This document shows positions 22,317-49,700 of a DNA stretch of 64,000 nucleotides, in pieces. The notes beneath the pieces are model-generated. The model saw only the letters and a program-made list of their open reading frames with translations, did not search any database and was not told the origin of the DNA. Source of the DNA: Escherichia coli (GTDB taxonomy: Bacteria > Pseudomonadota > Gammaproteobacteria > Enterobacterales > Enterobacteriaceae); the NCBI RefSeq assembly GCF_011045215.1, contig NZ_CP049201.1. One strand, written 5' to 3'. The stretch's first letter is position 1, and the number at the start of each line of letters is the position of its first letter. Position numbers and translations under genes: made by a program.

Positions 22317-22346
22317 ATGCAGGCATAAAAATTGGGGGAGGTGCCT

Positions 22347-24623
22347 ATGCTCAATCAAGAACTGGAACTCAGTTTAAATATGGCTTTCGCCAGAGCGCGC
22401 GAGCACCGTCATGAGTTTATGACCGTCGAGCACTTGTTACTGGCGCTGCTCAGTAACCCATCTGCCCGGGAGGCGCTGGAAGCGTGTTCTGTGGATTTGG
22501 TTGCGCTCCGTCAGGAACTGGAAGCCTTTATTGAACAAACCACACCCGTTCTGCCTGCCAGTGAAGAGGAGCGCGACACACAGCCGACGCTGAGTTTTCA
22601 GCGTGTACTGCAACGTGCGGTCTTCCATGTCCAGTCCTCCGGTCGCAATGAGGTTACCGGTGCAAACGTTCTGGTCGCTATCTTTAGCGAACAGGAGTCG
22701 CAGGCGGCATATCTGTTGCGTAAACATGAAGTCAGCCGTCTCGATGTGGTGAACTTTATCTCTCATGGCACGCGTAAAGACGAGCCGGCACAGTCTTCTG
22801 ATCCTGGCAGCCAGCCAAACAGCGAAGAACAAGCTGGTGGGGAGGAACGTATGGAGAATTTCACGACGAACCTGAATCAGCTTGCGCGCGTGGGCGGAAT
22901 CGACCCACTGATTGGTCGTGAGAAGGAGCTGGAGCGTGCTATTCAGGTTCTCTGCCGTCGCCGTAAAAACAACCCGCTGCTGGTGGGGGAATCTGGTGTC
23001 GGTAAAACCGCGATTGCAGAAGGTCTTGCCTGGCGAATTGTTCAGGGCGATGTGCCGGAAGTGATGGCTGACTGTACGATTTACTCTCTCGATATCGGTT
23101 CTCTGTTAGCGGGCACAAAATATCGCGGCGACTTTGAAAAACGTTTTAAAGCGTTGCTCAAGCAGCTGGAGCAGGACACTAACAGCATCCTGTTTATTGA
23201 TGAGATCCACACCATTATCGGTGCGGGTGCAGCGTCTGGTGGTCAGGTCGATGCGGCTAACCTAATCAAACCGTTGCTCTCCAGCGGTAAAATTCGCGTA
23301 ATTGGTTCGACAACCTATCAGGAGTTCAGCAACATTTTCGAGAAAGACCGTGCTCTGGCGCGTCGCTTCCAGAAAATTGATATTACTGAACCGTCGATCG
23401 AAGAAACTGTTCAAATCATCAATGGCCTGAAACCGAAGTATGAAGCGCACCACGACGTGCGTTATACCGCAAAAGCGGTGCGTGCGGCGGTAGAGCTGGC
23501 GGTGAAATACATTAACGATCGTCATCTGCCGGATAAAGCGATTGATGTTATCGACGAAGCGGGCGCTCGCGCACGCCTGATGCCGGTAAGCAAACGCAAG
23601 AAAACCGTAAATGTGGCGGATATTGAGTCCGTGGTGGCCCGTATTGCACGCATTCCAGAGAAGAGTGTTTCTCAGAGTGACCGCGATACCCTGAAAAACC
23701 TCGGCGATCGCCTGAAAATGCTGGTCTTCGGTCAGGATAAAGCTATTGAGGCGCTGACTGAAGCCATTAAGATGGCGCGTGCAGGTTTAGGTCACGAACA
23801 TAAACCGGTTGGTTCGTTCCTGTTTGCCGGCCCTACCGGGGTCGGGAAAACAGAGGTGACGGTACAGCTTTCGAAAGCTTTGGGCATTGAGCTTCTGCGC
23901 TTTGATATGTCCGAGTATATGGAACGCCATACCGTCAGCCGTCTGATTGGTGCGCCTCCGGGATACGTTGGTTTTGATCAGGGCGGTTTGCTGACTGATG
24001 CGGTCATCAAGCATCCACATGCGGTGCTGCTGCTGGACGAAATCGAGAAAGCGCACCCGGACGTGTTCAATATTCTGTTGCAGGTGATGGACAACGGTAC
24101 GCTGACCGATAACAACGGACGCAAAGCGGACTTCCGTAACGTGGTGCTGGTGATGACCACCAACGCCGGGGTACGTGAAACTGAGCGTAAATCCATTGGT
24201 CTTATCCACCAGGATAACAGCACCGATGCGATGGAAGAGATCAAGAAGATCTTTACACCGGAATTCCGTAACCGTCTCGACAACATTATCTGGTTCGATC
24301 ATCTGTCAACTGACGTGATCCATCAGGTGGTGGATAAATTCATCGTCGAGTTGCAGGTTCAGCTGGATCAGAAAGGTGTTTCTCTGGAAGTGAGCCAGGA
24401 AGCGCGTAACTGGCTGGCCGAGAAAGGTTACGACCGGGCAATGGGCGCACGTCCGATGGCGCGTGTCATCCAGGACAACCTGAAAAAACCGCTTGCCAAC
24501 GAACTGCTGTTTGGTTCGCTGGTGGACGGCGGTCAGGTCACCGTCGCGCTGGATAAAGAGAAAAATGAGCTGACTTACGGATTCCAGAGTGCACAAAAGC
24601 ACAAGGAGGAAGCAGCGCATTAA
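22347..24623 (+). CDS. clpA: ATP-dependent Clp protease ATP-binding subunit ClpA
   Basis: Two AAA+ modules (Walker A GESGVGKT and GPTGVGKT); 758 aa from [11 protein letters not shown]. Confidence 0.92.
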
Positions 24624-24647
24624 TCTGATTGTTAAGTAGGTTGGTGA

Positions 24648-24681
24648 AGTCCGTAATCTCGAAAGAGGTTACGGACTTTTT
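24648..24681 (+). terminator. Rho-independent terminator of clpA
   Basis: Hairpin agtccgtaa / ttacggact followed by TTTTT. Confidence 0.75.
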
Positions 24682-24836
24682 ATTTATGGGGTGGAGGAGG
24701 TTCAGACCCTTTTTTTGATGATGATGGTTAGTTGTTGATAATTAGTCCTGCTGGAAGGTAAGGATAAAAAAGGGTGGCAGCAGGAGAATGAGATGGTTTT
24801 GCTTTATTAACAACGGGCTAAACGTGTAGTATTTGA

Positions 24837-24984
24837 GTTCACTGCCGTACAGGCAGCTTAGAAAAATTGTCGGCGCATTTTCCCATTAGTTGCAAAGTTC
24901 ACTGCCGTACAGGCAGCTTAGAAATTCACAGGTAACATACTCCACCCGCCCACCATGTTCACTGCCGTACAGGTAGATAAAATG
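24837..24984 (+). CRISPR. Orphan type I-F-like CRISPR mini-array (3 repeats, 2 spacers)
   Basis: 28-bp repeat GTTCACTGCCGTACAGGCAGCTTAGAAA at 24837-24864 and 24897-24924; degenerate third copy at 24957-24984; two 32-bp spacers; AT-rich leader-like sequence upstream; no cas genes in window. Confidence 0.85.
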
Positions 24985-25041
24985 CGAAAAAAAAGCTCGT
25001 ACTTTCGTTCGAGCTCTTCTTTAAATATGGCGGTGAGGGGG
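24982..25041. repeat. att-like direct repeat copy 1 (tRNA-Ser 3' end plus terminator)
   Basis: 25028-25046 is the reverse complement of the last 19 nt of tRNA-Ser(GGA), preceded by hairpin plus A-run (a minus-strand terminator); the 60-bp unit recurs at 25161-25220. Confidence 0.7.
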
Positions 25042-25160
25042 GGATTGACTCGCTTCGCTCGCCCTGCGGGCAGCCCACTCACTGCGTTCGTGGTCTGTCC
25101 AACTGGCTGCGCCAGTTGTCGAACCCCGGTCGGGGCTTCTCACCCCCCCTGGAGTGCATT

Positions 25161-25220
25161 ATGCGAAAAAAAAGCTCGCACTTTCGTACGAGCTCTTCTT
25201 TAAATATGGCGGTGAGGGGG
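25161..25220. repeat. att-like direct repeat copy 2 (island left junction)
   Basis: Near-identical to 24982-25041 (2 mismatches); the tRNA-like match is shorter (about 14 nt); lies directly upstream of the integrase gene. Confidence 0.7.
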
Positions 25221-25380
25221 ACCGCCTGAAATAAATCTGACTTAATCCAGGGGTGTTATATAATTTCATTATAAACAATGTATTACACTTTTTGTTGTCC
25301 GATATTATCTAATGTATTCTTAGTGAAGCGAGAGACTAATGGCATACTGGATGGCATACCAGAGTGACGGGAATTAGCGT

Positions 25381-26583
25381 ATGGCAGTATTGACGGATAC
25401 GAAAGCAAGACATATCAAACCTGATGACAAACCATTGCCCCATGGGGGAATTACCGGACTGACCCTTCATCCTTCTTCAGTAAAGGGGCGGGGGAAATGG
25501 GTTTTTCGTTATGTAAGTCCGGTGACACAAAAAAGACGTAATGCTGGATTGGGAACTTACCCAGAGGTCAGTATTGCTGAAGCTGCACGTACTGCCCGGA
25601 TAATGCGAGAGCAACTTGCTGCAGGTGATGATCCTCTGGAGATTAAAAAGGCTGAATCTGAGAAAGTCGTTATCCCAACATTTGCCGATGCAGCCAGGCG
25701 TGTACATGCAGAACTGTCTCCTGGATGGGAAAATCCAAAGCATGTAAGGCAGTGGTTATCGACGCTTGAGAATTACGCGTTTCCTCAACTGGGAGCAAAA
25801 ACGCTGGATTCGATTACGGCTGCGGACGTGGCAGAAACATTGCGTCCAGTCTGGTTAACCTTGTCAGAAACGGCAAGCCGGGTTAAACAGCGCATTCATG
25901 TTGTTATGCAGTGGGGATGGGCGCACGGTTTTTGTGTGGCAAATCCTGTTGATGTGGTTGACCATTTGCTTCCTCAGCAGACAAGAGGACGTGATGAACA
26001 CCAACCCGCAATGCCCTGGAGGCAGTTACCGCTTTTTGTGGCGACCAGTGTGTATAGTGATGAACCTTATAATGTTACCCGCGCACTGTTATTAATGGTG
26101 ATACTTACAGCAACTCGCTCGGGCGAAGCCAGGGGAATGCGCTGGGCTGAAATTGATTTTCATAAGCGGGTATGGACTATACCTGCAGAAAGAATGAAAG
26201 CTAGGCTACAGCATCGTGTTCCTTTATCCCGGCAGGCTATTTACATTCTGGAAAATATACGTGGCCTGCATGATGAACTGGTGTTCCCTTCACCCAGAAA
26301 GCAGCAGATCCTTTCCGATATGGTGTTGACAAGTTTTCTGCGTAAAAAGAAAGCCGTCAGTGACATTCCGGGGCGAGTTGCCACGGCACATGGTTTTCGC
26401 TCAACATTCAGGGACTGGTGTAGTGAACAGGGGTATTCGCGGGATCTGGCGGAAAGGGCGCTCGCTCATACGCTGAAAAATAAGGTTGAGGCGGCATATC
26501 ATCGCACTGATCTACTGGAGCAGCGTGTACCGATGATGCAGGCATGGGCGGATTATGTGATGTCTCAAATTGTGAATAAATAA
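25381..26583 (+). CDS. Tyrosine recombinase, P4-type integrase family
   Basis: 400-aa ORF; N-terminal arm-binding-like region and C-terminal catalytic region (AHGFRSTFRDW...LAH...Y); adjacent to att repeat. Confidence 0.85.
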   Translation: MAVLTDTKARHIKPDDKPLPHGGITGLTLHPSSVKGRGKWVFRYVSPVTQKRRNAGLGTYPEVSIAEAARTARIMREQLAAGDDPLEIKKAESEKVVIPTFADAARRVHAELSPGWENPKHVRQWLSTLENYAFPQLGAKTLDSITAADVAETLRPVWLTLSETASRVKQRIHVVMQWGWAHGFCVANPVDVVDHLLPQQTRGRDEHQPAMPWRQLPLFVATSVYSDEPYNVTRALLLMVILTATRSGEARGMRWAEIDFHKRVWTIPAERMKARLQHRVPLSRQAIYILENIRGLHDELVFPSPRKQQILSDMVLTSFLRKKKAVSDIPGRVATAHGFRSTFRDWCSEQGYSRDLAERALAHTLKNKVEAAYHRTDLLEQRVPMMQAWADYVMSQIVNK

Positions 26584-30421: not shown

Positions 30422-30639
30422 TGAAATAATTTCTGGAGGTATTAAGAATGAGAAATATGAATGATATTTCGTGGTAAATAATACAGTCTGCACTGAATTA
30501 ACCTTATCGGTTTATTAAACATCAGATCTACAAATGCTCAGTATTTCTCAGAGCATCAGGTCTGAATAGCAGCTATTTTCGCTATTGTAGCGGGAGTTGC
30601 TGCTATTTTACTAACCCATTAATGAAAAGAGAGGCTTTT

Positions 30640-32073
30640 ATGTGCTTACTTGCACCAGAAAATCCTTATCCGATATATGCACTACCACCGCTGGTGAGAA
30701 ATGCAATAATTGAAACTCAAAAAAATACACAGGCACCTTTGGCTATGGTGGCAACATCCGCATTAACAGCGATCTCAATTGCCTGTCAGAATCAGATTGA
30801 CGTGTGCAGACCTGGAAATTTACATGGGCCTGTTAATCTTTACTCTCTGATTCTGGCTGATTCCGGTGAAAGGAAAACGACCGTGGATAAAGTGTTTATG
30901 AAAGCATTTTATCTCAGGGATGAAGCCCTGGCGGAAGAATACGCGAAACTGGTTGAGAATTACAGTACAGAAAAGGAAATATGGGAGCAAAAACAAAAAG
31001 CGCTGGAATCAAAATTTCATAAAGAGATTCGTGCCGGTAAAGATTACAAGGCAACAGAATCAGAGCTTGAAACGCATCTGAATAAATCTCCTGTTCCGCC
31101 GCAGATACGTCGAACAATTTTTAATGAGACAACGATAGAGGGAATGTTAAAATATTACTCTGATAGCAATCGCTCTTTTGCTCTTGTATCCAGTGAAGGG
31201 GGGGTAATTTTTGACAGCCGGGCCATGAGTAAACTGGGAATTATTAACACTTTGTGGGATGGAGGTTCTCTTTTCATCGACAGGAAATCATCTCCCGGAA
31301 TTAATTTGAAGGAGCCAAGACTGACGATATCGGTGATGATTCAGCCTGATGTTTACCACAAAGGTTTTTGTACGCGAAAAAAAGAACTTGTGAAAACGTC
31401 AGGACATCATGCAAGGTTTTTGATGTGTCAACCAACATCAACGCAGGGGACAAGGATAATAACCGGAGATAATTATTCATCACAGTATCAGGATTTGTTT
31501 GAAGAGAGGATCAATGAGCTTATTGATGAAAGTCTGGCGATGAGTGGTGAACGACGTTGCCTTCACTTTTCTCCTCAGGCTGCCAGAATCTGGACGGATT
31601 ATTACAATGATGTGGAATCGAAGCTGGGGGGATTGGGGCCTTTAAGACATTGCCGGGAATATGCTGCTAAAAATGCAGAGTATATGGCAAGACTGGCAGG
31701 ACTTATTTACCATTCGAGCGGTGAAGAGGGGGAGATTTCCCCTTACACTGCAGAAATGGCGAGAGAATTAGCAATATGGTACGGTAATGAGTATGTGCGG
31801 TTGTCTAATCCGTTAACTTTTGACAACTCCGCCCTGACCGTACCTGTGCGACTCATTCCAGAGGAGCTTGAACTTTTCAACTGGATAAAAAGCTATTGCA
31901 TTGAGAAGGGGATCCTCTGTATGAAAAAAAATGACATTTTACAGCGTGGCCCGAACCGTTTCCGGAAAAAGGATAAAATCAACTGGTTACTGGATTTACT
32001 GTATGAACAAAACAGAGTTGTACCGGTTATTGAGGGAAAAACGTTGTGTGTCGCACCTAACTTTGACCTCTGA
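30640..32073 (+). CDS. DUF3987-like (YfjI-like) island protein
   Basis: About 478-aa ORF; assignment from recalled similarity to prophage YfjI-type proteins; SD agagagg before ATG at 30640. Confidence 0.5.
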   Translation: MCLLAPENPYPIYALPPLVRNAIIETQKNTQAPLAMVATSALTAISIACQNQIDVCRPGNLHGPVNLYSLILADSGERKTTVDKVFMKAFYLRDEALAEEYAKLVENYSTEKEIWEQKQKALESKFHKEIRAGKDYKATESELETHLNKSPVPPQIRRTIFNETTIEGMLKYYSDSNRSFALVSSEGGVIFDSRAMSKLGIINTLWDGGSLFIDRKSSPGINLKEPRLTISVMIQPDVYHKGFCTRKKELVKTSGHHARFLMCQPTSTQGTRIITGDNYSSQYQDLFEERINELIDESLAMSGERRCLHFSPQAARIWTDYYNDVESKLGGLGPLRHCREYAAKNAEYMARLAGLIYHSSGEEGEISPYTAEMARELAIWYGNEYVRLSNPLTFDNSALTVPVRLIPEELELFNWIKSYCIEKGILCMKKNDILQRGPNRFRKKDKINWLLDLLYEQNRVVPVIEGKTLCVAPNFDL

Positions 32074-32334
32074 ACGACTTAATCGTTGAGTACATATAGT
32101 CTCCTCTGCTACTTGCGGAGGAGACTAATGTCTTTACCATGTCAGCGTTGTATTAGAAAACTCTGGTACAGGTCAGTCAGTAAATATAACTGGTGTAACC
32201 ACTATTTACTATTGGATAGAGTGTTGCTCAGGATATTGTCGGCTTTAGTCTGAGGTGAGGTGGGGCCTTCATTGTTTTCGTGTTCAATAAATAATTTAGG
32301 TTAATTAGTATTATTAGTGGGAGTTATGTGATCT

Positions 32335-32702
32335 GTTATGTTGTCTCTTTTATCGTAATGTCACTCCTCTCTATGCTAAGTATTCTGTATGTGTGTAATA
32401 CATATATCTCCATACACTACGCAGTGAAGCATATGGGGGGAAGCTGTATGGTGAATTATGTGGTGTAATGTTGGGAACATAAATCTGTTATGTTATGTTG
32501 TCTTGTACGCACTTAACACTGGTTACGTACCGGAACACTATTAGAGTATGTTATGGCTCCGTTACAGTTTATAAGCATAGGTAAATATAATATTTTCTGT
32601 ATGAAATAATCTTCTTATTGTGAGGTTAAATATCTGTAGGCTCTCTCTGCAGAGTCTCTGTTTTTACTTAATGGTACGGCAATATTAATAGCGATGTTGT
32701 CT
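32335..32702. repeat. Iteron-like short direct repeats in AT-rich non-coding region
   Basis: GTTATGTTGTCT at 32335-32346 and 32504-32515, related ATGTTGTCT at 32694-32702, within a 0.9-kb gene-free AT-rich stretch upstream of a Rep-like gene. Confidence 0.4.
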
Positions 32703-33011
32703 GTGGCTACCCGGTACTGACTTTTGTGAAGATCAGATTATATCCTGTAAGTAATTGAATGGTGCTTTCTTAAACTCAATTATATGAGGTGTGTTTTTTA
32801 TTGTAATTCGTTCTGGTCCTCAGTTTAAGAAAGTCTTACTGTATTCTGAATCATTACCCTATTACTGTAATGAGGTAATACGAAACAGTTTTATCAGGTT
32901 GTCTGTGCTGCTGGTTACCTCTTTTATTAATGCCGCGGTACGGCGTTTCTGTACTCTCAGTATTTATGTAATTCCACTTTCCTGTCAGTTTTATAAAGTA
33001 AGGACTATAAA

Positions 33012-33575
33012 ATGTATAATGCCAATCCCAATTACGAAATGAATTTCGCGATTCTGAAAGATGTGAATGAACACATGGAAGGTCTGTTTCAACGTTTTTC
33101 TAAACTGTTACCTTTCAGAATTGATTTTGCTTACAGGAAAGACACGCCCAGTTTTGGTCTTTCCTGTAAGCACAGTATGTGTATGGAAATGTACCGCTTA
33201 CTTAGCGAAACCCAGACGATGTTGGCGGGATATTACTGGGTAATGGAATATACACCAGACAAAGGGCTTCATATTCATTTTATCGGCTATCTGGATGGAC
33301 AACGTCACAAGAACTCTTATCAGATATCCAGGCAACTGGGAGATATCTGGAGGCGGATCACGGAAGGGGAGGGTTATTTTCACCTGTGCCGGGCTAAAGA
33401 TAAATACCCGGTGCGTATCGATCATGTAATTCACTATAGTGATAAATCTGCGGTAGACGACTTACGTTACGCCCTTAGCTATCTGGCGAAACAGGATCAG
33501 AAAGAACACGGTATTATTCTGGGGCGTAGCAGGCTTCCCGAAAAAAGTAACCGCGGCCGACCACGACATAACTGA
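33012..33575 (+). CDS. HUH-motif Rep-like protein (YagK/YfjJ, inovirus Gp2-like family), paralog A
   Basis: 187-aa ORF with His-hydrophobic-His motif (GLHIHFIGY) and downstream Tyr-containing region. Confidence 0.55.
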   Translation: MYNANPNYEMNFAILKDVNEHMEGLFQRFSKLLPFRIDFAYRKDTPSFGLSCKHSMCMEMYRLLSETQTMLAGYYWVMEYTPDKGLHIHFIGYLDGQRHKNSYQISRQLGDIWRRITEGEGYFHLCRAKDKYPVRIDHVIHYSDKSAVDDLRYALSYLAKQDQKEHGIILGRSRLPEKSNRGRPRHN

Positions 33576-33669
33576 ATTATGGGGGCTTATGTCCGAACTA
33601 TCGTAAGTTATCGCGTGGATTTGCCTTCACACGAATTTCAGTCGTGGTGCCGCCGGGAGACAGGTACAA

Positions 33670-34033
33670 GTGATAACGCATATGGTTTATAAATCTGACA
33701 GCGATGAACTAGCAGTACTGCGGGCAGAAAATACCCGGCTGGTCTCATTACTTGAAGCTCATGGGATTGAATGGCGACGTAAACCGCAGAGCCCTGTGCA
33801 GTGCGTTTTCGTATTATCCACGGATGAGAAAGTTGCGTTATTTTGTCGACTGTTTCGCGGGCGTGATGATGTATGGGCCCTTCGATGGGAAAGCAAAACC
33901 AGCGGAAAGGGTATTCGTCTACCTGGCTAACGAATGGCTGTTGGGAATATGCAGTAAGCCCTGGATAAAATGTGGGGACTGCGCTCACCGTCAGTTGATC
34001 CCTGTATCTGATCTCATCATCTACCAGAGGTAG
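33670..34033 (+). pseudogene. 5' remnant of a larger gene (coiled-coil plus Cys-rich segment), frameshifted
   Basis: 33670-33930 encodes ...ALFCRLFRGRDDVWALRWESKTSGKG; an overlapping frame continues ...ANEWLLGICSKPWIKCGDCAHRQLIP before a stop; no downstream body. Confidence 0.3.
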
Positions 34034-34147
34034 TGTACAATATGCCGATATCGAACTGATACTTAATTAAAATATCTAGAGTGTGATATATCTCTGAGAA
34101 CTATCAATACGAATATTAAAAATACTTCCAGAATAACAGCAATACGG

Positions 34148-34651
34148 GTGGATCTCCATTACCCTCCTGTGATTGACAACGGGGATACCATTACCTGTTT
34201 TCCTAACCTGACCCCCGGAGAAATATCTCGTTTCCGTAACTCGCTGAATGCGAAAATTAATGCAGATCAACACCGTAAAAAACAACAAGGCAAACGCACC
34301 TACGCAACGTCGGTTTGTATTATCTGGGCGAAAGAATATACGCAGTCCTTTAAATGTCATTATCACGTCTGCCTGTTGTTTAACAAAGACGCCTATTACC
34401 ACCTGGGAGACTATGAGCGCTCTGACACCCTGAGAGGGTTAATTACCGGAGCCTGGTACAGTGCCTTAGGGTTGGAACTGGAAGATCACCAGGGATTAGT
34501 TCATTTCCCTACTAATGGGCGTTACATCCTGGATATTAACGATCCTGATTTCCCTGAGCAGTACCAGCGCTTATTGGTACGTCTGGATTATTTGACGAAG
34601 CTCGACACTAAAGCATCAGGCCAGCGTAACTTTGGCTACAGCGGTTTTTGA
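34148..34651 (+). CDS. HUH-motif Rep-like protein, paralog B (start uncertain, GTG at 34148)
   Basis: His-hydrophobic-His motif CHYHVCLLF aligning with paralog A; upstream in-frame sequence still resembles the A N-terminus, so the gene may be 5'-truncated. Confidence 0.5.
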   Translation: MDLHYPPVIDNGDTITCFPNLTPGEISRFRNSLNAKINADQHRKKQQGKRTYATSVCIIWAKEYTQSFKCHYHVCLLFNKDAYYHLGDYERSDTLRGLITGAWYSALGLELEDHQGLVHFPTNGRYILDINDPDFPEQYQRLLVRLDYLTKLDTKASGQRNFGYSGF

Positions 34652-34941
34652 CCTATTGTAACTATAAGGTGATTTATTATGTATATAGAATCTTACCAGA
34701 AAAAATACTTTTCCTTGTGATTTGGTACTGAGTTAACATTTAGTACAGTATTAGGGCCTTCATTGTCAGGCCCTGCTTTGCAATTTTTCAAAGCTCCAGG
34801 TAAGCTTTTTTCCGATAAACATGCTGATATCAAACACCGCTTCTTTACCAGCACTATCAAAAATAATTCTGATATTTGGTTTTTATCTCCTTGTCTATAG
34901 ATTCGTCACCAATACTGTAGCTTGTATCATTACTTCCTCAA

Positions 34942-35715
34942 TTAAGTGGTTAAAGCTCTAATGCTAAAAGAATGCAATATTGGTAGAGAGTTTTTTGAGC
35001 ACCATGACAGATTTTCTTTACTCAGTATTTCATCAATAACAGACTTAGCAAATGGAATGGTGAGCAAGAATGAAGCTTTTTTATCTTTATTTGGAACTAT
35101 GCGGTTACCACCATTTACCCAATGTGCTTCAAGTCTGACATTTAGATCTTGCCATTTTACACCTTTTCGAACACGTTCTTTTTTTAATGAATAGAAAAAA
35201 GTTGATTTACCATTTGGTGTCGGGTGGTTATCCATTAACATTAGCATAAGAGGGATTCCCCAGTCAGGCATATAGCTATAATGCCAGATCCCAAAACTAT
35301 CCGCGATCCTGACCATCCGAATGAATGATTTTTGATCAAGCTTCCCTTCACCTCCCCTTAATGCTCTACAAACAACCCAGGCCCGATAGAGGTTATCAAA
35401 TTGCATGAATTGATTTCGGCGAGATACTGCAATTTCTGCTGAAGCAGAGCGTTCATTACCTGAAAAACCAGAAAAACGTTGAGATCTTGCGCTTAGGGGA
35501 CAGAACTCTTTATTTTCTGGTGAAGCGGAATGAGAGAATCTGGGGCTATAATCAGGATTGGGAGTGACTAATCCGCTATCATGGACAGGTTTCTCGCATG
35601 AGATACAACGTAATGGTGGGTAGTCATCTCGTGATATACCCTTAACTTTTTGTGCATATGCATCAATACTGATTTCAATCCAATAACCTTTTTCCAGAAC
35701 TTCAGCTTTATTCAT
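34942..35715 (-). CDS. Hypothetical 257-aa protein
   Basis: Uninterrupted ORF with AT-rich upstream region; no recognised domain. Confidence 0.45.
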   Translation of the reverse strand: MNKAEVLEKGYWIEISIDAYAQKVKGISRDDYPPLRCISCEKPVHDSGLVTPNPDYSPRFSHSASPENKEFCPLSARSQRFSGFSGNERSASAEIAVSRRNQFMQFDNLYRAWVVCRALRGGEGKLDQKSFIRMVRIADSFGIWHYSYMPDWGIPLMLMLMDNHPTPNGKSTFFYSLKKERVRKGVKWQDLNVRLEAHWVNGGNRIVPNKDKKASFLLTIPFAKSVIDEILSKENLSWCSKNSLPILHSFSIRALTT

Positions 35716-36022
35716 AATGTGTTGCCTCTGATATTGTTCATGTGATTATTGATAATAATAGATTACAGATAAAAAAGAAGAAATATGTATTTAAATCTTG
35801 TATTACAATGTATATATACAATTCAATCAAAAATTAGTGTTTTTAATCTCATGGCATAATCAGAAAACAGCAGAACGGGGTATTTGTTTTAATGGCGCCT
35901 CGATAAAAATTGAGATAACAGTTGCAGTTTAAAACACCTCTATTTCGTGGTTCTGAATATAGAGGCTTTACGATTTATTAAAATATTACTAAAATATGTT
36001 CATATTCCGATGCACAGACCTT

Positions 36023-36418
36023 TCACTTCTGCTTTTTCTCATTTTTGTCAGTTGTAGACTCAGTTTTTTTACGTTTTAACTTTAATATCATCTTTCCATT
36101 GCTAAATTCAATTTCTTCGTAATCGCGGAAAACAGTAATAACCAGAGCAATACCAATGGATGCTGCAGCAATAATAACAGCGATATCAAGTCCGGATAAT
36201 GCAGCTAAAGAACTAACAGCTAAAACAGAACCTCCACCAGTGAGTGGAATAGTAGCACAAGTTGCGATCATGGCAGCAATAACAACACCACTTACTTTTG
36301 TTACAGCCTTTGCTTTTTTAATTTTATTTGCTAACTCTCCTTCAATAATTATAATTTCAGCTCTGCTGTTTTGAGCTTTTTCGAGTTCATCCTTCGATCT
36401 TACAGTAAATTCAGCCAT
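36023..36418 (-). CDS. Hypothetical small membrane protein (131 aa)
   Basis: Central long hydrophobic segment with charged N- and Lys-rich C-termini; hairpin cctctat...atagagg downstream. Confidence 0.45.
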   Translation of the reverse strand: MAEFTVRSKDELEKAQNSRAEIIIIEGELANKIKKAKAVTKVSGVVIAAMIATCATIPLTGGGSVLAVSSLAALSGLDIAVIIAAASIGIALVITVFRDYEEIEFSNGKMILKLKRKKTESTTDKNEKKQK

Positions 36419-38456: not shown

Positions 38457-40196
38457 TTGACTGGAAAATTATGTTGCAGGAACGAGAGGGCTGAGGAACA
38501 AAGCGTATTCCGGCGCTGTCCGTCCTTGCTGTCACTGACACTGATGTCTGTTTTATTATCGCCTTTATCTCTTCAGGCCGCGGATGTCCGGCGTAGCGGA
38601 GATAATGCATTTATCATTCAGCAGCAGCGTCAGGAAGCCCTTGAGCAACAACTGACGCCTTCAGCCCCTGATGTTCGCCTTTCTGCACCTGGCTCTTTTG
38701 CCCGTAAGATTAATTTTCCTGTTGAAACGCCCTGTTTTCAGATTAAACAGACGGAACTGGAGGGGGCTGATGCGTTACCACACTGGCTGCCTTTACAAAA
38801 AATCGCCAACGGGGCGGTCGGGCATTGCCTGGGGGCGAAAGGAATTAATCTGCTGATGAGTACATTGCAGAACCGTCTGGTCGATCATGGTTATGTCACC
38901 ACCCGTGTTCTGGCACCTTCGCAGGATTTAAAAAGCGGTATCCTCCGGCTGGTTGTTATTCCCGGTGTTGTGCGACATGTGCGTCTGACACCGGACAGTG
39001 ATGACTATATTCAGTTGTATTCCTCATTCCCGGCACACGAAGGTTCTCTGCTGGATTTACGGGACATTGAGCAGGGGCTGGAGAATATGCAACGACTGCC
39101 GGGTGTGCAGGCTGATATGGAAATTGTACCCGGTGAGCAGCCAGGGGAAAGTGACATTCTTATTACCCGCAAACAGGACAAATACTGGCGACTGGGGTTT
39201 TCGCTTGATGATTCAGGTACCCGCAGCACAGGGCGTTATCTCGGTGGTATAACATTTTCTCTGGATAATCCTTTTTCCCTGAGTGACCTGCTGTATGTTT
39301 CTGCCACCCGTAATTTTCCACATTACGGGGGTAAGGGCAGTAAAAACTACACGGCCCATTACTCTGTGCCTTTCGGCTACTGGCAGTTTTCCGTCACCGC
39401 CAGTGATTACGATTACCATCAGACGGTAGCTGGTGCGGTTGAGGATTACCAGTACAGTGGCGAGAGTCAGAATCTGGGTATGCAGCTGAGCCGGGTACTG
39501 CACCGTAACGGGACGCAGAAAACGGTGCTGACCTACGATGTTCAGGCCCGCAGGTCGCGTAACTACATTAATGATACGGAAATCCAGGTGCAGCGCCGGC
39601 AGACAGCGGCCTGGCGACTTGGGCTGCAGCACCGTCATTATATTTCTCAGGCCACACTGGATGCTGGTGTCAGCTGGCAACGGGGAACCCGCTGGTTTGG
39701 TGCACAGCCGGCGCCGGAAGAAACGTTCGGTGAGGCAACGGCGCTCAGTAAGATCCTGCAGTTGAATGCATCCTTTAATCTGCCCTTTACCCTTGCAGGG
39801 CAGCCCTTCAGTTATTCCTTCCGGTATCAGCGCCAGCTGAGCAATACCCCGCTGACCCCACAGGAACAGTTTGCCATCGGTAACCGCTGGACGGTTCGTG
39901 GTTTTGACGGGGAGCGAACGCTGAATGCCAGTAACGGCTGGTATATCCGCAACGACCTGGCCTGGCGTACGCCACTGCCGGAGCAGGAGTTATATCTGGG
40001 AATGGATTACGGCGAGGTGGGGGGAGCCGGCAGTGAATACCTGGTGGGACGTCATCTGGCTGGTGGTGTTGTGGGGCTGAGGGGGCAACTGTTCAGTACG
40101 GATTATGACGTTTTCATCGGTCGTCCGTTTTCAAAGCCGGCGGGTTTTATGACGAGTGATGTGACAGCCGGTTTTAATCTGTTCCGGGATTTCTGA
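38457..40196 (+). CDS. cdiB: Two-partner secretion outer-membrane transporter CdiB (TpsB family); start uncertain (TTG at 38457)
   Basis: Signal peptide ending [13 protein letters not shown]-like N-region, C-terminal beta-barrel ending in aromatic residue; directly upstream of cdiC-cdiA. Confidence 0.85.
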
Positions 40197-40205
40197 GAAA
40201 GTTTC

Positions 40206-40733
40206 ATGCGTAACGGGAAATATGACGTTCTGAGTCCCCTGTATTCCGGTGAGCCGGTCAATGAGGCGGAAGTCCTGGGGGCGGCCGTCTGGTTGTGGAT
40301 GCACTCCCCCCTGCATCGTGATGCGCCACTGCATACCCTGCCGGACCTGCTGCTGCCGGTGATTAAGCACCGACAGTATGTGGTGGCAACAGAGCAGGGG
40401 CGACCGGTTTTCTTCATGAGCCAGGCCTGGCTCAGCCCGGAGGCAGAGGCGCGTTATCTTACGCAGCCGGCAATTCTCATGCCTCAGTCGGACTGGAACA
40501 GCGGCGACCGGATGTGGGTCTGTGACTGGATTGCCCCTTTTGGACATACCCCGGATATGAGTCGTCTTGTCCGGCAGGATATTTTTCCCCGTCTGTGCTG
40601 GCGTTCGCTGTACCACCGTGGGCAGCAGACCGGGTTGCGGGTGATGAATTTCCGGGGTGCACAGGTCAGTCGTGAAGAGGCGCGCCAGTGGCGTGTGCAG
40701 CACCCGCTTGCTGTGGATGTGCCGGAGAGATAA
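40206..40733 (+). CDS. cdiC: HlyC/RTX-family toxin-activating lysine acyltransferase (CdiC-like)
   Basis: Motifs WLWMHSPLHRD and GDRMWVCDWIAPFG closely parallel HlyC (WLWASSPLHRN, GDRKWFIDWIAPFG); 175 aa. Confidence 0.8.
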   Translation: MRNGKYDVLSPLYSGEPVNEAEVLGAAVWLWMHSPLHRDAPLHTLPDLLLPVIKHRQYVVATEQGRPVFFMSQAWLSPEAEARYLTQPAILMPQSDWNSGDRMWVCDWIAPFGHTPDMSRLVRQDIFPRLCWRSLYHRGQQTGLRVMNFRGAQVSREEARQWRVQHPLAVDVPER

Positions 40734-40748
40734 GTCAGGTTTATCAGA

Positions 40749-43700
40749 ATGAACAAAAATTGTTACCGCATTATTTTTAACAAAGCCCGGGGAATGCTGA
40801 TGGTGGTGGCAGATATTGCCCGTTCCGGTCGCGCCGGTGCATCACCCTCCTCCCGTACAGGATATCCACGCAGGCAACGTATCTGCCGTGTCACATCGCT
40901 TGCATTCTCCCTGTGGCTGGCCTCGGGGATGGTGCATTCTGTCAGTGCTGCAGGCATTGTCGCAGACCATGGCGCACCGGGGCATCAGCAGCCCACGATT
41001 ACGCAGACAGCCAGCGGCATTCCTCAGGTCAATATCCAGACACCTTCTGCAGGTGGGGTATCGCACAATACTTACAGTCAGTTTGATGTCAGTCATCAGG
41101 GTGTCATTCTGAATAACTCGCATAAAAATGTGCAGACCCAACTGGGCGGCATGGTTGCCGGTAACCCGTGGCTGGCGAAGGGAGAGGCCCGAATCATTCT
41201 TAATGAAGTGAACAGTCGCAATCCCAGCCAGTTGAACGGTTTTGTTGAGGTTGCCGGGAAAAAGGCGCAGGTGGTGATTGCGAACCCGGCCGGCATCAGT
41301 TGCGACGGGTGCGGTTTTATTAATGCGAACCGGGCCACGCTGACCACGGGGCAGCCTCAGATGAAAAACGGCAGTCTGACCGGATTCAGTGTTGAACGTG
41401 GTGAGATTCAGATTACGGGCAAAGGGATGGATGCCTCGCGCACGGATTATACCGATATCATTGCCCGGTCTGTGAAGATTAATGCGGGTATCTGGGCGCA
41501 GGACCTGAAAGTGACCACCGGACGTAACAATGTGGATATTGCACACGGGCAGACTGAGAAAAAAGCCGCTGATGCCTCTTCGCAGCCACAGGTGGCGCTG
41601 GATGTGTCCAGCCTTGGTGGAATGTATGCCGGAAAAATTCGCCTTGTCGGTACGGAAACGGGGGTGGGTGTTCGTAACGCCGGTCATATTGGTGCGCAGG
41701 CAGGGGCGGTTACCCTGACGGCTGACGGACGAATTGAAAACAGTGGCAGTATCAGTGCGAAAACGGATGTGCATCTGGTGACAACCCGGGAGCTGCATAA
41801 CAGTGGTTCTGTTTATGCGGGGCAGGATACGCAGATACAGAGTGATGGTGTATTCACCCATACAGGCTCTGTGGCATCACGTCGCAACACCCGGATTCAG
41901 ACAGCGCGTCTGACCGGCGGTGAGCGGAGTCTGCTGGCCGCCGGGGTGAAAGATGACGGACGTCTGGCGGCAGCGGGCAACCTGACTGTCAGTACCACCG
42001 GCGAACTGGCGGCACACGGACAGGTTCTGTCCGGTGGGGACATGCAACTGAAGGGGCAGGGGCTGGATTTAAGCAACAGCCGGATACAGGGACAACATAC
42101 TGAGCTGGATGCAGGCAGCGGAAATCTGTTCACGCAAAATGCGCAACTGAGTGCCGGTACGCTTTCCGCCCGGACTGCCGGGCAGTTCAGCAATAATGAC
42201 GGCACGATAAATGCCGACACACTGCAGATATCAGCACAGAGCCTGTCAAACCACAGGGGTAAACTGATTCAGACGGGAACAGGGGATTTTTCACTGAACC
42301 TGCCGGGAGGTGTGGATAACCGGGAAGGGCTGCTTGCGGCAAATGGCGCGGTGCGCCTGGATGCACTGAGCCTTGATAATCGCAGGGGGAAAGTGCAGGC
42401 GGCGCAGTCAGGTAGTCTGCAGGTGAGGACAACCGGCGCCGTGGATAACCAGCAGGGAAGTCTGATTGCCAGCCGTGACATCCTGATTAATACACAGGCA
42501 CTGAATAACGACAACGGACTGATTTCAGCTGCTGCCGGAACGGGCAGGATAAAAACACAGCAGGCTGTCAGCAATACTGAGGGACGAATGGAGTCCGCCG
42601 GCAGGCTGGATATTTCGGCAGGGAGTCTGAATAACCACCAGGGTACGGTGGTGTCTGACGGGCTGTCCGTGACGCTGGATGGTGCGCTGGATAATACGTC
42701 CGGCAGACTGCTTTCACAGAAAACGCTGTCTGTGTCAGGCAGCGAACTGGTCTCTGATGATGGTCTGATTCAGTCCGGCAGTGACATGACGCTGGATGTA
42801 CAGGACGGGGTTCTCAGTAACCGGAACACGAAAACACGGGGTGGTATCAGCAGCGCCGGTACCCTGACAGTACGGGCCGGTATGCTGAATAACCAGCAGG
42901 GATTTATGGCGGGTCAGAAGGATATGACCCTGAACGCCGGAACGCTCGATAACCGTCAGGGCGTGCTGGGGAGTCAGGCGTCATTACAGATATCGTCAGG
43001 TACGCTGATGAACCAGAAAGGCGCACTGAAGGCCGGGACGGATATGTTGCTGAGTGGTGGCGATGTCAGTAATCAGGAAGGGACGCTTGCCGCCGGCGGG
43101 GACCTGAATGCGCACCTGAATGTGCTGGAAAATCAGCAGGGGACGGTGGTCAGCAACGGTAACAGCAGGCTGGATGTCACCCGCTCTGATAATCAGGGCG
43201 GCAGACTGGTGGCACAGCAGTCACTGACCCTTTCCTCGACGGATATCAGCAATGATGCAGGTGGTCTGATACAGAGCGGTGCCACACTGAATCTCCGTGC
43301 TGACACACTGAGCAACCGTAACAGTGGTGACCGGGGCGGGGTTATCAGTCAGGGCCCGATGACGCTGAATGCCGGCACACTGGACAGCACTGCCGGTGTG
43401 CTTTTGTCGGGAGATGCGCTGTCCCTGACTGCAGGCGTGGTTAACAATACATCCGGTCAGGTGGTGGCGAATGGTCAGATTGTGGCGACCGGTCTGCCCG
43501 GCCGGAACAGTCTGGCGCTGAACAATCAGTCCGGTCTTATTCAGGGGAAAGGCATCAGCATTAATAGCGCAGGCCGGACGCTGGATAACAGAGGGGGTAC
43601 GCTGAACAGCCTGCAGGAACTGACTGTCAGTACCGGAGCAATGGATAACCGGGGCGGGACCGTGGGGGCGAAAACGACAGCTGACCTGAGCACCACCTCG

Positions 43701-46700
43701 CTGGATAACCGTGAGGGTGGCCGGCTGGTCAGTGAAGGTGAACTCCGTCTGCATACGGGAGGCCTGCAGAACAGCCACGGACAGATACAGTCTGTGGGCG
43801 ACATTCTGTTCGACAGTGTACGGGGCGTTGTGGACAACGTCTCTGGTCTGATTCGCAGTGGTTCTGCCATTACGCTGAACGCCCTGCAGTTTATCAATCG
43901 CCACACGCAGAATACCGGCCAGGGGCTGGAAGCGCAGACAATACACATCACGACGCAGGACCTTGATAACCAGGAGGGCAGTATTCTGGCAGACAGGGCG
44001 CTTACGGTTATGGCAGACAGGACGCTCAGTAATAATGATGGCGTGCTCTCTTCCGGCGCGACATTGTCTGTCAGTGGCCGTCAGCTGGCGTTTTCGAACC
44101 GTGACGGCGTGGTTAAGGCCGGGCAGTCAGTCTCTGTGGATGTCGGTCAGCTTGGTGGTGACGGGAAACTGCTTTCGCCGGGCGATATAACGCTGAAAAG
44201 TAACACAGCGTTCAGTAACAGTGGTCAGACCATTGCAAACGGAAACCTTACGCTTTCCGTTAATGGCGATGTCTCTAATACCGGCAGCCTGCTGGCAGGC
44301 AGCCGGCTTGACCTGAACAGCATCCGCCTTGAAAACACAGAGAAAGGTGAAATCAGTGCCGGGCAGACCTGGCTTAACGTGACGGACACACTGCTGAACC
44401 GTGGGCTGATTGACGGGAAATATACGCATCTTCAGGCGAACACCCTGACGAATTCCGGTACCGGGCGAATCTACGGCGATGCTGTTGGTGTCAGCGCTGC
44501 CACATTTAATAATCTGGATGAAAATGGCGTGGCGGCGACGCTGGCCGGACGTGAGCGTGTGGACCTGGGGGTACAGACCCTGAATAACCGGACGCACAGC
44601 CTGATTTACAGTGCAGGTGATATGCATATCGGTGGCATGCTGGATGCGAATGGCGCCGCCACGGGGAAAGCCGGTGTACTGAATAATCACAGTGCCACGA
44701 TTGAAGCCGCCGGTTCCCTGACACTGAGTGCCGGGCAAATCAATAACGTCAATGACCATTTCACCACGGAGCGCGTGGTGGTCTCCACGGAAAAGGTGAC
44801 TGAGTATCAGCATCGCGGGTCAGATGTCCGCTGGAATGCAAAAGATGAGGGGGTGTTCATTGATAACAACTCCTCTGATGGACTGCTGAACCTGAACACG
44901 CCGGATGATACCGGACATAACAACGACCGGTTCACAAAATATGAATACACCCGTACCGTGGAGGAAACCCGGGTAAAAGACTCCGACCCGGGGAAAATAC
45001 TGTCCGGTGCCGGCATGACGGTTGTGGCAGACAAACTGCTTAATGACAAGAGCCAGGTGGTTGCAGGTGGTCTGCTGGATATGCAGGCCGGTGATGTGGA
45101 AAACGTCAGTGTCAGCGGAGAGCGCCATGTTACTGATAAAGGGACATCCACATATTATTACCGGATAAAAAGAAAAAATAAAAATGACAGGCAGGGGGAA
45201 AGAATTTCCCCTTACGAGCCGCCCCCCGTCATTCAGACCATCACGCTGAAGCCGGGAGAGCTCACCAGCCACGGACAGGTTCAGGGCAGCCAGGTCACGC
45301 TTTCTCCCCTGAAGCCACAGGGAACGGATGTACAGACAGGACTGACCGGAAATGTGGATGCGACAGTAGCCGTTACTGACCGGATACCGCTTCGCCCGGT
45401 GGTGTCAGCCGGTGAACCGGTCATTCTGTTGCCGGGGCAGCAGTTTGAAGTCAGCGCACCTCAGGGCAGTATCCATGTTGCCGGGCCGGATACCCGTCTG
45501 CCGGACAGCAGCCTGTTTAAAACAAATCCGGCAGTGAATGTGCCATATCTGGTTGAAACGGACCCGCGTTTTACGAACCAGAAGACGTGGCTGGGCAGTG
45601 ATTACATGCAGAAGGCGTTTTCTCAGAACGGGGATAACATGCTCAAACGCCTGGGGGATGGTTTTTACGAACAGCGTCTGATTCGTGAGCAGGTTGTCGC
45701 TCTGACCGGGCAACGGTACCTGGACGGATACAGTAATGATGAAGAGCAGTTTAAGGCGTTAATGGATGCGGGTATTGCATTTGGTAAGCAATACAACCTG
45801 ACACCAGGTGTGGCGCTGACTGCTGAGCAGATGGCGTTACTGACCGGTGATATTGTCTGGCTGGTTAACACCACGGTGACACTGCCGGACGGCAGCACGC
45901 AGACGGTTCAGGTACCTCAGGTGTATGCCCGTGTAAAACCCGGTGATGTGAACAGTGCCGGTGCGCTGATTGCCGGCAGGGACATGGTGATGAAGCTGGA
46001 TGGTGACCTGTTTAACAGCGGTAAACTGGCCGGGAAGCAGGCCGTGCAGCTCAGTGCAGAAAACATTCACAACCAGGCCGGCACCATTCAGGGAGCAAAT
46101 GTCAGCCTGACGGCCCGGACGGATATTAACAGTACCGGCGGGCTGCTGCAGGCCACGGACAGCCTGCTGGCGATGGCCGGACGGGATATCAGTCTGACCA
46201 CCACCACCCGTACGGCACAGCGCGACGCCGGGCAGAACCATTTTGAACGTACCAGTATCGACAGTGTGGCCGGCGTGTATGTGCAGAACGACCAGGGAAG
46301 ACTGGTGCTGCAGGCCGGACGGGATATGAATCTGACGGCGGCAACGGTGGTGAATCAGGGTAAGGACAGCCTGACACAACTCAGTGCCGGCAGGGATATG
46401 ACGCTTTCCACGGTGACCACATCCGCGCAGGACAATATTACCTGGGATAAAAATAATCGTCTGTCGCAGGGCGTCACACAGAATACGGGCAGCACACTTG
46501 CCGGTAACGGTGATGTCACGCTGACCGCCGGACGGGATATGACGTCACAGGCGGCATCGCTGTCAGCTCAGAAAGGCCTGGCCCTGATGGCGGGTCATGA
46601 CGTGACGCTGACCGGTGCACAGAATACCCGCTCGCTGGATGAATACCATAAAGTGACCGGCAACAGCGGGATGTTATCGAAAACCACCACTACCACGCAT

Positions 46701-49700
46701 GATGTCACTGACCGCCGGACCATGACGGGCAGTGAACTGAACGGGGATACGGTCAGTATCGGTGCCGGACATAATCTGAACGTCACGGGCAGCAGTGTGG
46801 CCGGGGATAACCGTGTCTCCCTGGCTGCCGGAAATAACCTGAGTATCGGAACGCTGACAGAAAGCAACCGTGAAACACACCTGAAACAGGAGAAAAAATC
46901 CGGACTGATGAGCTCCGGAGGTGTGGGATTCAGCGTGGGCAGCCAGAGTCTGAAGGTCACGGACACCGCAACAGACACCACGCAGAAAGGCAGCACGGTG
47001 GGGAGTGTTCACGGTGATGTTTCCCTTCAGGCAGGTAACCGGTTGACCGTCAACGGCTCTGACCTGATTGCCGGCAGGGACATGGCACTCAGTGGTAAGG
47101 AGGTCAGCATTACCGCCGCCACTGACCGGCATGTGCAGACACATACGGTGGAGCAGAAAACCTCCGGTCTGACGCTTGCCCTGTCCGGCACAGCGGGCAG
47201 CGCCCTGAACACGACGGTGGAGACCGTACAGGCGGCGAAATCTGCCGGAAACAGCCGGCTTGAAGCCCTGCAGGGGGTGAAGGCCGCGCTCTCGGGGGCT
47301 CAGGCCGTGCAGGCCGGACGACTGGCAGAAGCACAGGGCAACCAGAAAGAGAATAACAATACCGTGGGTATCAGCCTCTCTTACGGCAGCCAGTCTTCGA
47401 AATCAGAACAGCAGTCAGAGCAGACGGTGGCGAAGGGCAGTACACTGACCGCAGGTAATAACCTCAGTATTCAGGCCACCGGCTCCGGCGTGAAGGGCGT
47501 GGATGGTGACCTGACGATACAGGGCGGTCAGATAAAGGCCGGGAACAACGTTCTGCTGCAGGCAAACCGTGACGTGAATCTGGTATCAGCAGAAAACACG
47601 TCAAAGCTGGAAGGAAAGAACACATCCAGTGGTGGCAGCGTGGGTGTCGGTATCGGTGTGGGGCCCGGAGGGCCTGGTTTCAGTCTGTCAGCCAGCGCAA
47701 ACCAGGGTAAGGGCAGTGAAAAAGGCAACGGTACCACCCATACAGAAACCACGGTGGATGCGGGAAACCGGCTGACCATTATCAGCGGGCGGGACACCAC
47801 GCTTACCGGCGCGCAGGCTGGCGGTGAAACGGTGAAAGTGGATGCCGGTCGTCATCTGACACTGACCAGTGAGCAGGACAGTGACCGTTATGACAGTAAG
47901 CAGCAGAATGCCAGCGCCGGAGGCAGCTTCACTTTCGGGTCCATGAGCGGTTCGGCGAGTGTGAACCTCAGCCGGGATAAAATGCACAGTAACTACGACA
48001 GTGTACAGGAGCAGACGGGGATTTTTGCCGGCAGGGGCGGGTTTGATGTCACCACCGGACAGCATACGCAACTGAACGGTGCGGTGATTGCGTCCACGGC
48101 AACGGCAGATAAAAACAGGCTGGATACCGGCACACTGGGCTTCAGTGACACTGAAAACCGGGCTGACTTTAAAACGGAACATCAGAGTGCAGGGCTCAGT
48201 ACCGGTGGCAGTGTTGCCGGAAATTTCCTGGGGAACATGGCAAACAATCTGCTGGTCGGTGCAAATCATGAAGGCCATGCGGACAGTACCACGCAGTCGG
48301 CTGTGTCTGCCGGGAATATCACTATCCGGGATACACAGAGCCAGAAACAGGATGTGGCAGACCTGAACCGTGACGTTGCGCATGCAAACCAGACGCTGTC
48401 CCCCATCTTTGACAGGGAAAAAGAGCAGCAGCGGTTGCAGCAGGCGCAACTCATTGGTGAGATTGGTAACCAGGTGGCAGATATTGCCAGAACGGAAGGA
48501 CAGATAGCCGGTGAGAAAGCGAAGCGGGACCCGGCAGCACTGAATCAGGCCCGCGCAGAGCTTGAGGCAGCAGGAAAACCGTACACGGAACAGGATGTGG
48601 CACAGCGGGCCTACAATAACGGTATGGCAGCCTCCGGTTTTGGAACGGGAGGCAAATACCAGCAGGCGATACAGGCCGCAACGGCAGCGGTACAGGGACT
48701 GGCCGGCGGTAATCTGAGTGCAGCCCTGGCAGGTGGTGCAGCGCCGTATATTGCTGAAATTATCAAACAGACCACCCCGGACGGTGCGGGGCGTGTGGCA
48801 GCTCATGCAGTAGTGAATGCCGCCCTGTCTCTGGCACAGGGTAAGAATGCCCTTGCCGGTGCTGCAGGTGCAGCCACCGGCGAGGTGGTGGGAATGATAG
48901 CCACACAGATATACGATAAATCGGTGAGTGAACTGAGTGAGACAGAGAAACAGACGGTCTCCACGCTGGCAACGGTTGCTGCCGGCCTGGCCGGTGGTCT
49001 GGTGGGAGACTCGGGGGCTTCAGCGGTAGCCGGCGCACAGTCAGGTAAGACGACTGTTGAGAATAATTATCTTAGCGTGTCTGAAAAGACAGAGCTTGAG
49101 ATAGCAAAACAGAAGCTTAAAAACAGTAAAGATCCGGCAGAGCGTGAAAAGGCACAGCAGAAATATGATGCATTGCTTGAAAAAGATATCAGCAGTGATA
49201 AGGCAGTAATCGCTGCGTGCAGTAACGGACAGGCAGCCAGCGCAGCTTGTGCCGGTGAAAGACTGAAGGTTATTGCAGCTAAAGGAGGTTATGAAACCGG
49301 ACACTACAATAACCAAGTCAGCGATATGTATCCGGATGCTTACGGGCAGATAGTAAACCTGCTGAATATCACCAGTGTTGATGCACAAAATCAACAACAG
49401 GTGAAGGATGCGATGGTGAACTATGCCATGGTGCAGTTTGGGGTCGATAGGGCGACGGCACAGGCATACGTTGAAACTTATGATGGAATGAAAGTTGTAG
49501 CTGCTTCGATGGCACCAGTAATAGGTGCTGCGGCGGCCAGTAAGATAGAAGTTCTGGCTGGTAAACAACGCTTGTCTAATAGTTTCGAGGTTAGCTCACT
49601 TCCAGATGCAAATGGGAAAAATCACATCACGGCTGTAAAAGGTGATGCTAAAATACCTGTCGATAAGATTGAACTATATATGCGTGGTAAAGCTTCTGGT

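Follow-up and report, generated by a model that had tools for sequence, protein, structure and literature searches.

A frame-disrupted stub in the cargo slot of an Escherichia coli clpA-adjacent island, a probable 5' remnant of an AEP primase-helicase gene

The DNA analysed here, called the window throughout, is a stretch of 64,000 nt from Escherichia coli (contig NZ_CP049201.1). It contains a P4-type-integrase island that adjoins clpA. The main annotated features around the segment under study, including a two-partner-secretion locus (38457-50069, + strand), are as follows:

22332-24623: clpA
25381-26583: integrase, P4-type
30622-32073: DUF3987/YfjI gene
33012-33575, + strand: yfjJ-like (inovirus Gp2 / YagK-YfjJ) backbone gene, a 187-aa ORF and the left edge of the variable cargo region
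34148-34651, + strand (frame open from 34067): second Gp2/YagK-family gene (Pfam YagK_YfjJ_C, E 7.5e-50)
38457-40196, + strand: ShlB/FhaC-type transporter
40206-40733, + strand: HlyC-type acyltransferase
40749-50069, + strand: exoprotein ORF of 3,106 aa

The yfjJ-like gene is named YagK/YfjJ or inovirus-type Gp2 by RefSeq in all related islands, and its Pfam matches (REP_ORF2-G2P, YagK_YfjJ_C) were weak and below cut-off. The preceding interval of about 940 nt, from the yfjI-like to the yfjJ-like gene (32074-33011), holds no ORF longer than 55 aa, has a GC content of 0.34-0.41 and shows a strong T-over-A skew; all related islands likewise leave 820-1,375 nt between these two genes without annotation. 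ARAGORN found no tRNA gene in the window, though the P4-type integrase gene lies 750 nt from clpA (gap 24624-25380). In E. coli K-12, serW adjoins clpA; here the island presumably has its tRNA attachment site at the opposite end. Within the defence-cargo slot, two further, adjacent ORFs lie on the minus strand: a 257-aa ORF containing a CxxC (34942-35715) and a 131-aa ORF with apparent hydrophobic, membrane-like segments (36023-36418). They had no match in Pfam, NCBIfam or PADLOC, are situated in very AT-rich DNA (GC 0.28-0.45), and are 'hypothetical proteins' according to RefSeq in GXU-23-25-310. The 3,106-aa exoprotein ORF is intact in the window and split into pseudogene pieces in OkiPb01695.

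Between the two Gp2/YagK-type genes, the ORF list contains an 86-aa ORF with a GTG start (33670-33930) and an overlapping 93-aa ORF (33752-34033) that includes CSKPWIKCGDCAH. The original prediction read this pair as what survives, with a frameshift, of the start of a larger gene that has otherwise been deleted. Both ORFs are present as it described them and are not chance frames, as indicated by tblastn homology, nucleotide identity and Pfam. When the full-length protein from an O157 strain was compared with the whole window by tblastn, its residues 1-76 were found at 33682-33909 (90.8% identity) and its residues 84-117 at 33926-34027 (79% identity). Across 344 nt, the DNA of the stub shares 88-90% identity with full-length genes. 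Homology stops at 34025 (…ATCATCTACC); past this point the full-length genes read ACCATCTGGCC… and the window reads AGAGGTAGTGTACAATATGCC…. The parts of the stub and the DNA that follows it are:

33682-33907, + strand: stub segment 1, codons 1-76 in the original frame (MVYKSDSDEL...ESKTSGK), placed by tblastn and nucleotide alignment
33908-33925, + strand: stub segment 2, 18 nt, about codons 78-83 in the third frame, placed by alignment to full-length alleles
33926-34025, + strand: stub segment 3, codons 84-116 (ANEWLLGICSKPWIKCGDCAHRQLIPVSDLIIY), placed by tblastn, the junction listing and Cys conservation
34026-34127, + strand: foreign AT-rich DNA with the 'A-type' junction AGAGGTAGTGTACAATATGCC..., which supplies QR* and matches no full-length locus

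The ends of the predicted ORFs need revision on both sides. The homologous start is ATG 33682 (MVYKSDSDEL) rather than the GTG at 33670, and the last two codons and stop of the 93-aa ORF (QR*, to 34033) are foreign DNA. That the frame is disrupted was correct; a single shift between two frames was not. Nucleotide alignment to full-length alleles placed a 4-bp deletion (AATC) at about 33907/08 and a 1-bp deletion at 33925/26, within the Cys83 codon. Because the stretch 33908-33925 is flanked by these two deletions, it lies in the third frame (GYSSTW, where the full-length protein has SGYSPAC), and the mapped lesions thus distribute the stub over three frames. The gene is truncated at its 3' side at 34025/26. 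As the original prediction held, there is no gene body, and this applies to the whole 64-kb window: tblastn with the O157 protein found none of the remaining 670 codons there, nor downstream of Mokosh-type stubs. The segment thus combines the marks of a pseudogene remnant: it is homologous to an intact gene, its frame is disrupted by lesions, and part of the gene is missing.

Judged by sequence homology, the stub is the 5' remnant, about the first 115 codons, of a gene for a 786-aa fusion of an AEP primase and an SF2 helicase. A protein search with the conceptual, frame-repaired fusion, which had been proposed with the original prediction, matched positions 1-68 of 230 of Pfam AEP-TOTE (PF22548) with E 5e-16 and 59.4 bits (cut-off 27 bits). 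In the full-length protein, Pfam assigns AEP-TOTE to residues 49-277 (E 1.7e-98), ResIII/DEAD to 423-565 and Helicase_C to 639-738. In PADLOC this protein matched only the CRISPR-associated PrimPol model (E 2.5e-147) and generic helicase models; NCBIfam gave sub-threshold matches to CRISPR-associated PrimPol and XPB/RadD helicases, and the closest solved structures were XPB-type helicases and the CAPP PrimPol domain. The family is large, with 9,094 cluster representatives at E<=1e-3 and 1,518 at E<=1e-30.

An alignment of 52 diverse family members (35-61% identity) showed that C83, C92, C99 and C102, spaced C-x8-C-x6-C-x2-C, are each at least 90% conserved. The Cys-x2-Cys segment of the original prediction is therefore part of a real motif, of which it forms the end; in the same alignment, conservation of the Leu/Glu heptad-like pattern at the N-terminus is loose. 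In the stub the motif is incomplete, with C92, C99 and C102 kept and the C83 codon lost to the 1-bp deletion. The conserved DxD (142-144), H178, GKT (450-452) and DECH (534-537) all lie past residue 116. Of the AEP catalytic motifs (DxD, H178, D216) none is in the window, and the SF2 helicase core (Walker A GKT, DECH, Helicase_C), present in full-length homologues, is likewise missing from all 64 kb. Since the catalytic residues are all beyond the break, the stub cannot retain the activity of the enzyme.

In a set of 5,426 complete E. coli genomes, megablast with the region hit features that are called either 'TOTE conflict system archaeo-eukaryotic primase domain-containing protein' or 'DEAD/DEAH box helicase family protein' by RefSeq; 733 of these genomes are intact through the breakpoint. 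Inspection of homologous islands showed a full-length gene of 2,361-2,367 bp (786-788 aa) in place of the stub, immediately behind the yfjJ/Gp2-like gene, in strain 1070/13 (WP_000233439.1), O157:H7 PA20 (WP_000233452.1) and M70 (WP_061091460.1). Homologues with a longer body are hence abundant, in the 733 genomes as among the cluster representatives above, which supports the original prediction, and the idea that what was lost had been earlier cargo of this spot can be given a name, an AEP primase-polymerase / SF2 helicase fusion. Considering its domain make-up and the defence systems found in the same slot of sister islands, the lost gene was probably anti-phage or 'conflict' cargo. A literature search (TOTE conflict, PrimPol-helicase defence, yfjK) found no experimental or functional study of the full-length AEP-helicase, including in phage defence. 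A 955-aa distant homologue in another locus (L043 3403-6270) has an additional weak C-terminal match to a PLD nuclease (PLDc_2), which suggests from domain content that some members of the AEP-helicase family may be helicase-nuclease effectors.

Across the junction, GC falls from 0.49 to 0.375. Part of the DNA beyond it (34078-34119) resembles, at 82% identity, the sequence that precedes a Gp2/YagK tandem in another island (L011 5797-5840); in that locus, a 'type I phosphoribosyltransferase' is annotated upstream of the native tandem. Compared with its 204-aa homologue from O157:H16 (L011 5910-6524), the second Gp2/YagK gene of the window lacks about 160 nt, which correspond to the native start and about 30 codons, and its first canonical start is GTG 34148. 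RefSeq gives an ATA start to a copy that is base-identical to the window across the start (L006) and calls another copy frameshifted (L001). The gene was probably damaged by the rearrangement that truncated the AEP-helicase gene. We considered whether the junction sequence TGAGGTAGTGTAC... could be the end of an IS element, given its resemblance to the IS3-family end TGAGGTGTACTGAC... that follows in E2348/69. This reading is not supported, since the sequence is single-copy and found only beside the stub. A tentative Chi-like candidate, CCACCATC, is situated at the stub break. An Rfam scan of 32000-36000 at E<=1 returned no known RNA element, its one miRNA match being meaningless.

The stub occurs with two kinds of downstream DNA. 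Junction A, the type in the window, is present in 92 of the 5,426 complete genomes. Junction B (…ATCTACCAC joined to TACACGGTTTAACGG…) is present in 296, with mkoA 185 nt further on, so that one or the other type of 345-bp stub is carried by about 390 genomes. The type I Mokosh system that starts there in the 296 genomes is complete (MkoA 1,652 aa, MkoB 478 aa; L007 7474-13865, also loci L013, L014 and L016), and an upstream region of Mokosh I lacking the stub was never found. The two junctions are 2 bp apart on one stub allele, and A and B stubs are identical over the final 55 nt before the junction. Over 33801-33907, the window stub is 98% identical to Mokosh-linked stubs as compared with 86-87% to every full-length allele examined. 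B-type stubs are marked by a 17-bp deletion (33729-33745) and another 1-bp deletion; the former also occurs in some A-type stubs, which are recombinants, and E2348/69 has the A junction on a B-like stub body. A scan of metagenome contigs with one stub-specific 23-mer recovered 13 B-type (Mokosh) and 6 A-type junctions, and among these 19 contigs neither a third junction type nor a full-length gene. A full-length version of the stub-specific allele (…TGTATCTGATCTCATCATCTACC then ACCATCTGG) was found neither in the 5,426 genomes nor in the metagenome scan.

Elsewhere the gene is truncated at other points, at about 33908 in ST131, at about 33829 in Nissle 1917 and after 889 bp, beside an IS66 element, in another strain. 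IS elements are inserted 10, 24, 70 and 97 nt past the junction, and one inside the stub. An IS5 insertion and other 1-bp deletions are also among the lesions of other lineages. Because the lesions differ by lineage, the truncations vary and IS elements insert, the stub appears to be in unselected decay. The two junctions are most simply read as deriving from a single old truncated allele: its downstream DNA would later have been exchanged at the original junction or beside it, and the stubs would since have recombined with one another. Random deletion gives no account of the 2-bp proximity of junctions A and B.

We consider it highly probable (roughly 0.93) that the segment is a non-functional pseudogene stub of an AEP-helicase cargo gene, the rest of which was deleted or replaced. 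The clpA-adjacent island would once have carried the 786-aa gene as the first in its variable region, after the yfjJ-like gene. The ancestral protein would have consisted of an N-terminal helix, the four-Cys motif, an AEP primase-polymerase and an SF2 helicase (ResIII/DEAD and Helicase_C). A deletion or replacement would then have taken away everything past codon 116 and brought the stub up against the AT-rich DNA that precedes another Gp2/YagK gene, and the 4-bp and 1-bp deletions would additionally have broken the reading frame. With the downstream gene co-oriented and no + strand terminator predicted in a scan of 33400-34300, a passive role of the stub as transcribed leader is conceivable.

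It is possible to go further and regard the 3' end of the stub (…ATCTACC) as a boundary at which the cargo of the yfjJ-island defence slot is preferentially exchanged, where the stub persists as a donor of promoter and leader. This proposal fits the joining of two unrelated sequences, the Gp2 region and Mokosh I, within 2 bp on one allele, of which no full-length version was found in the 5,426 genomes or the metagenome scan. Promoter consensus, repeats or a multi-copy end sequence, any of which would lend positive support to exchange at a boundary or promoter donation, were not found, and we hold the proposal to be distinctly unlikely. Very unlikely, in our view, is that the stub has been retained for a function in cis, with its old promoter and 5' leader driving swapped-in cargo (Gp2/YagK; mkoA-mkoB) and its 3' end as the preferred boundary of exchange. 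The co-orientation of stub and downstream gene in both junction types, the terminator-free interval, the joining of two distinct downstream sequences within 2 bp and the missing native start region of the window's Gp2 copy would all be in line with such a function. However, the scan of 33400-34300 found no sigma-70-like promoter, and two junction types alone among 5,426 genomes and 19 metagenome contigs do not amount to a series of events at the site. The differing truncation points of other lineages (about 33829, about 33908, 889 bp) and the free insertion of IS elements in and after the stub also argue against it.

Sequencing or assembly artefacts in a gene that is intact in the organism have a negligible probability. 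Their one support is that small indels are a common type of error, whereas both deletions and the junction are seen again in complete genomes and metagenome contigs of independent origin, which shows that the lesions are not sequencing errors, and the remaining 670 codons are nowhere in the window. Equally negligible is the reading as a true small gene, or as fortuitous ORFs in non-coding sequence, with no larger relative: the 86-aa and 93-aa ORFs are open, but the Pfam domain breaks off at position 68 of 230, nucleotide identity with the start of 2.36-kb genes is 88-90%, and the reading frames of the stub vary between lineages.

As a pseudogene, the stub can be viewed as a fossil, and it shows that an AEP primase-helicase gene once occupied the island's cargo slot. 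The slot behind yfjJ is subject to turnover in CP4-57-type islands: CP4-57 of K-12 has Hachiman (abpB/abpA = HamB/HamA) and rnlAB there, OkiPb01695 and O157 have type I Zorya in their clpA-site island, strain 219 and others have type I Mokosh, and O157 and others have the AEP-helicase. Stubs of this kind record the order of replacement and are a useful marker, minor in itself. The full-length AEP-helicase, itself uncharacterised, would be reasonable to test for phage defence. Just downstream of the full-length gene in two loci, small 'hypothetical' ORFs (L019 6393-6707 and L002 10429-10617, both on the minus strand) match the C-terminal part of the phosphoribosyltransferase toxin ShosT (PADLOC, E 6e-22 and 3e-15, respectively), and because of these matches they appear to be fragments of another defence gene.

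When compared with named systems, the AEP domain of the full-length protein is related to CAPP (NCBIfam NF040561, E 1.3e-23; PDB 7nqd/7nqf). The match to 7nqd (E 6.7e-8) covers residues 113-272, almost all of it past the part kept in the window. With 83.4 bits for the full-length protein and 21 bits for the stub against an equivalog cut-off of 200, the protein is no NF040561 equivalog, and no cas genes were seen in the loci inspected around full-length AEP-helicases. The AEP domain family PF22548 takes its name from TOTE (TPR, OB, TBP, Effector) conflict systems (Aravind et al. 2022, as described in PMC12458937), which the latter account defines by neighbouring genes for a TPR-cold-shock (OB) fusion and a TATA-binding protein. 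Such neighbours were found neither at the full-length E. coli loci nor at three distant homologues, and the window neighbours of the stub had no Pfam match to TPR, OB or TBP. We rejected membership in a TOTE system, as the AEP-helicase gene stands alone, and the TOTE name in RefSeq reflects the domain family rather than system membership.

Full-length E. coli AEP-helicases share codons 1-116, genomic position and orientation after the yfjJ-like gene with the stub, and differ from it in being intact and in having the AEP catalytic motifs and the SF2 helicase. RefSeq labels the stub, with the A as with the B junction, as a frameshifted, C-terminally incomplete pseudogene in many genomes. Two of these, ACZ5DF_RS06205 (OkiPb01695) and AC2IM7_RS09170 (GXU-23-25-310), have the 4-bp and 1-bp deletions, the Gp2 junction and the position after the yfjJ-like gene as in the window, at 98% nucleotide identity. 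They differ in the first base after the junction, which is T (TGAGG) in these stubs and A (AGAGG) in the window, the latter variant being shared with one metagenome contig. The stub is already publicly annotated as a pseudogene, and hence is ordinary. CP4-57-type islands have the backbone order int - alpA-like HTH - yfjI (DUF3987) - yfjJ followed by variable defence cargo, as does the island in the window, which differs from them in that its cargo slot contains only the dead stub, the truncated second Gp2/YagK gene and uncharacterised ORFs.
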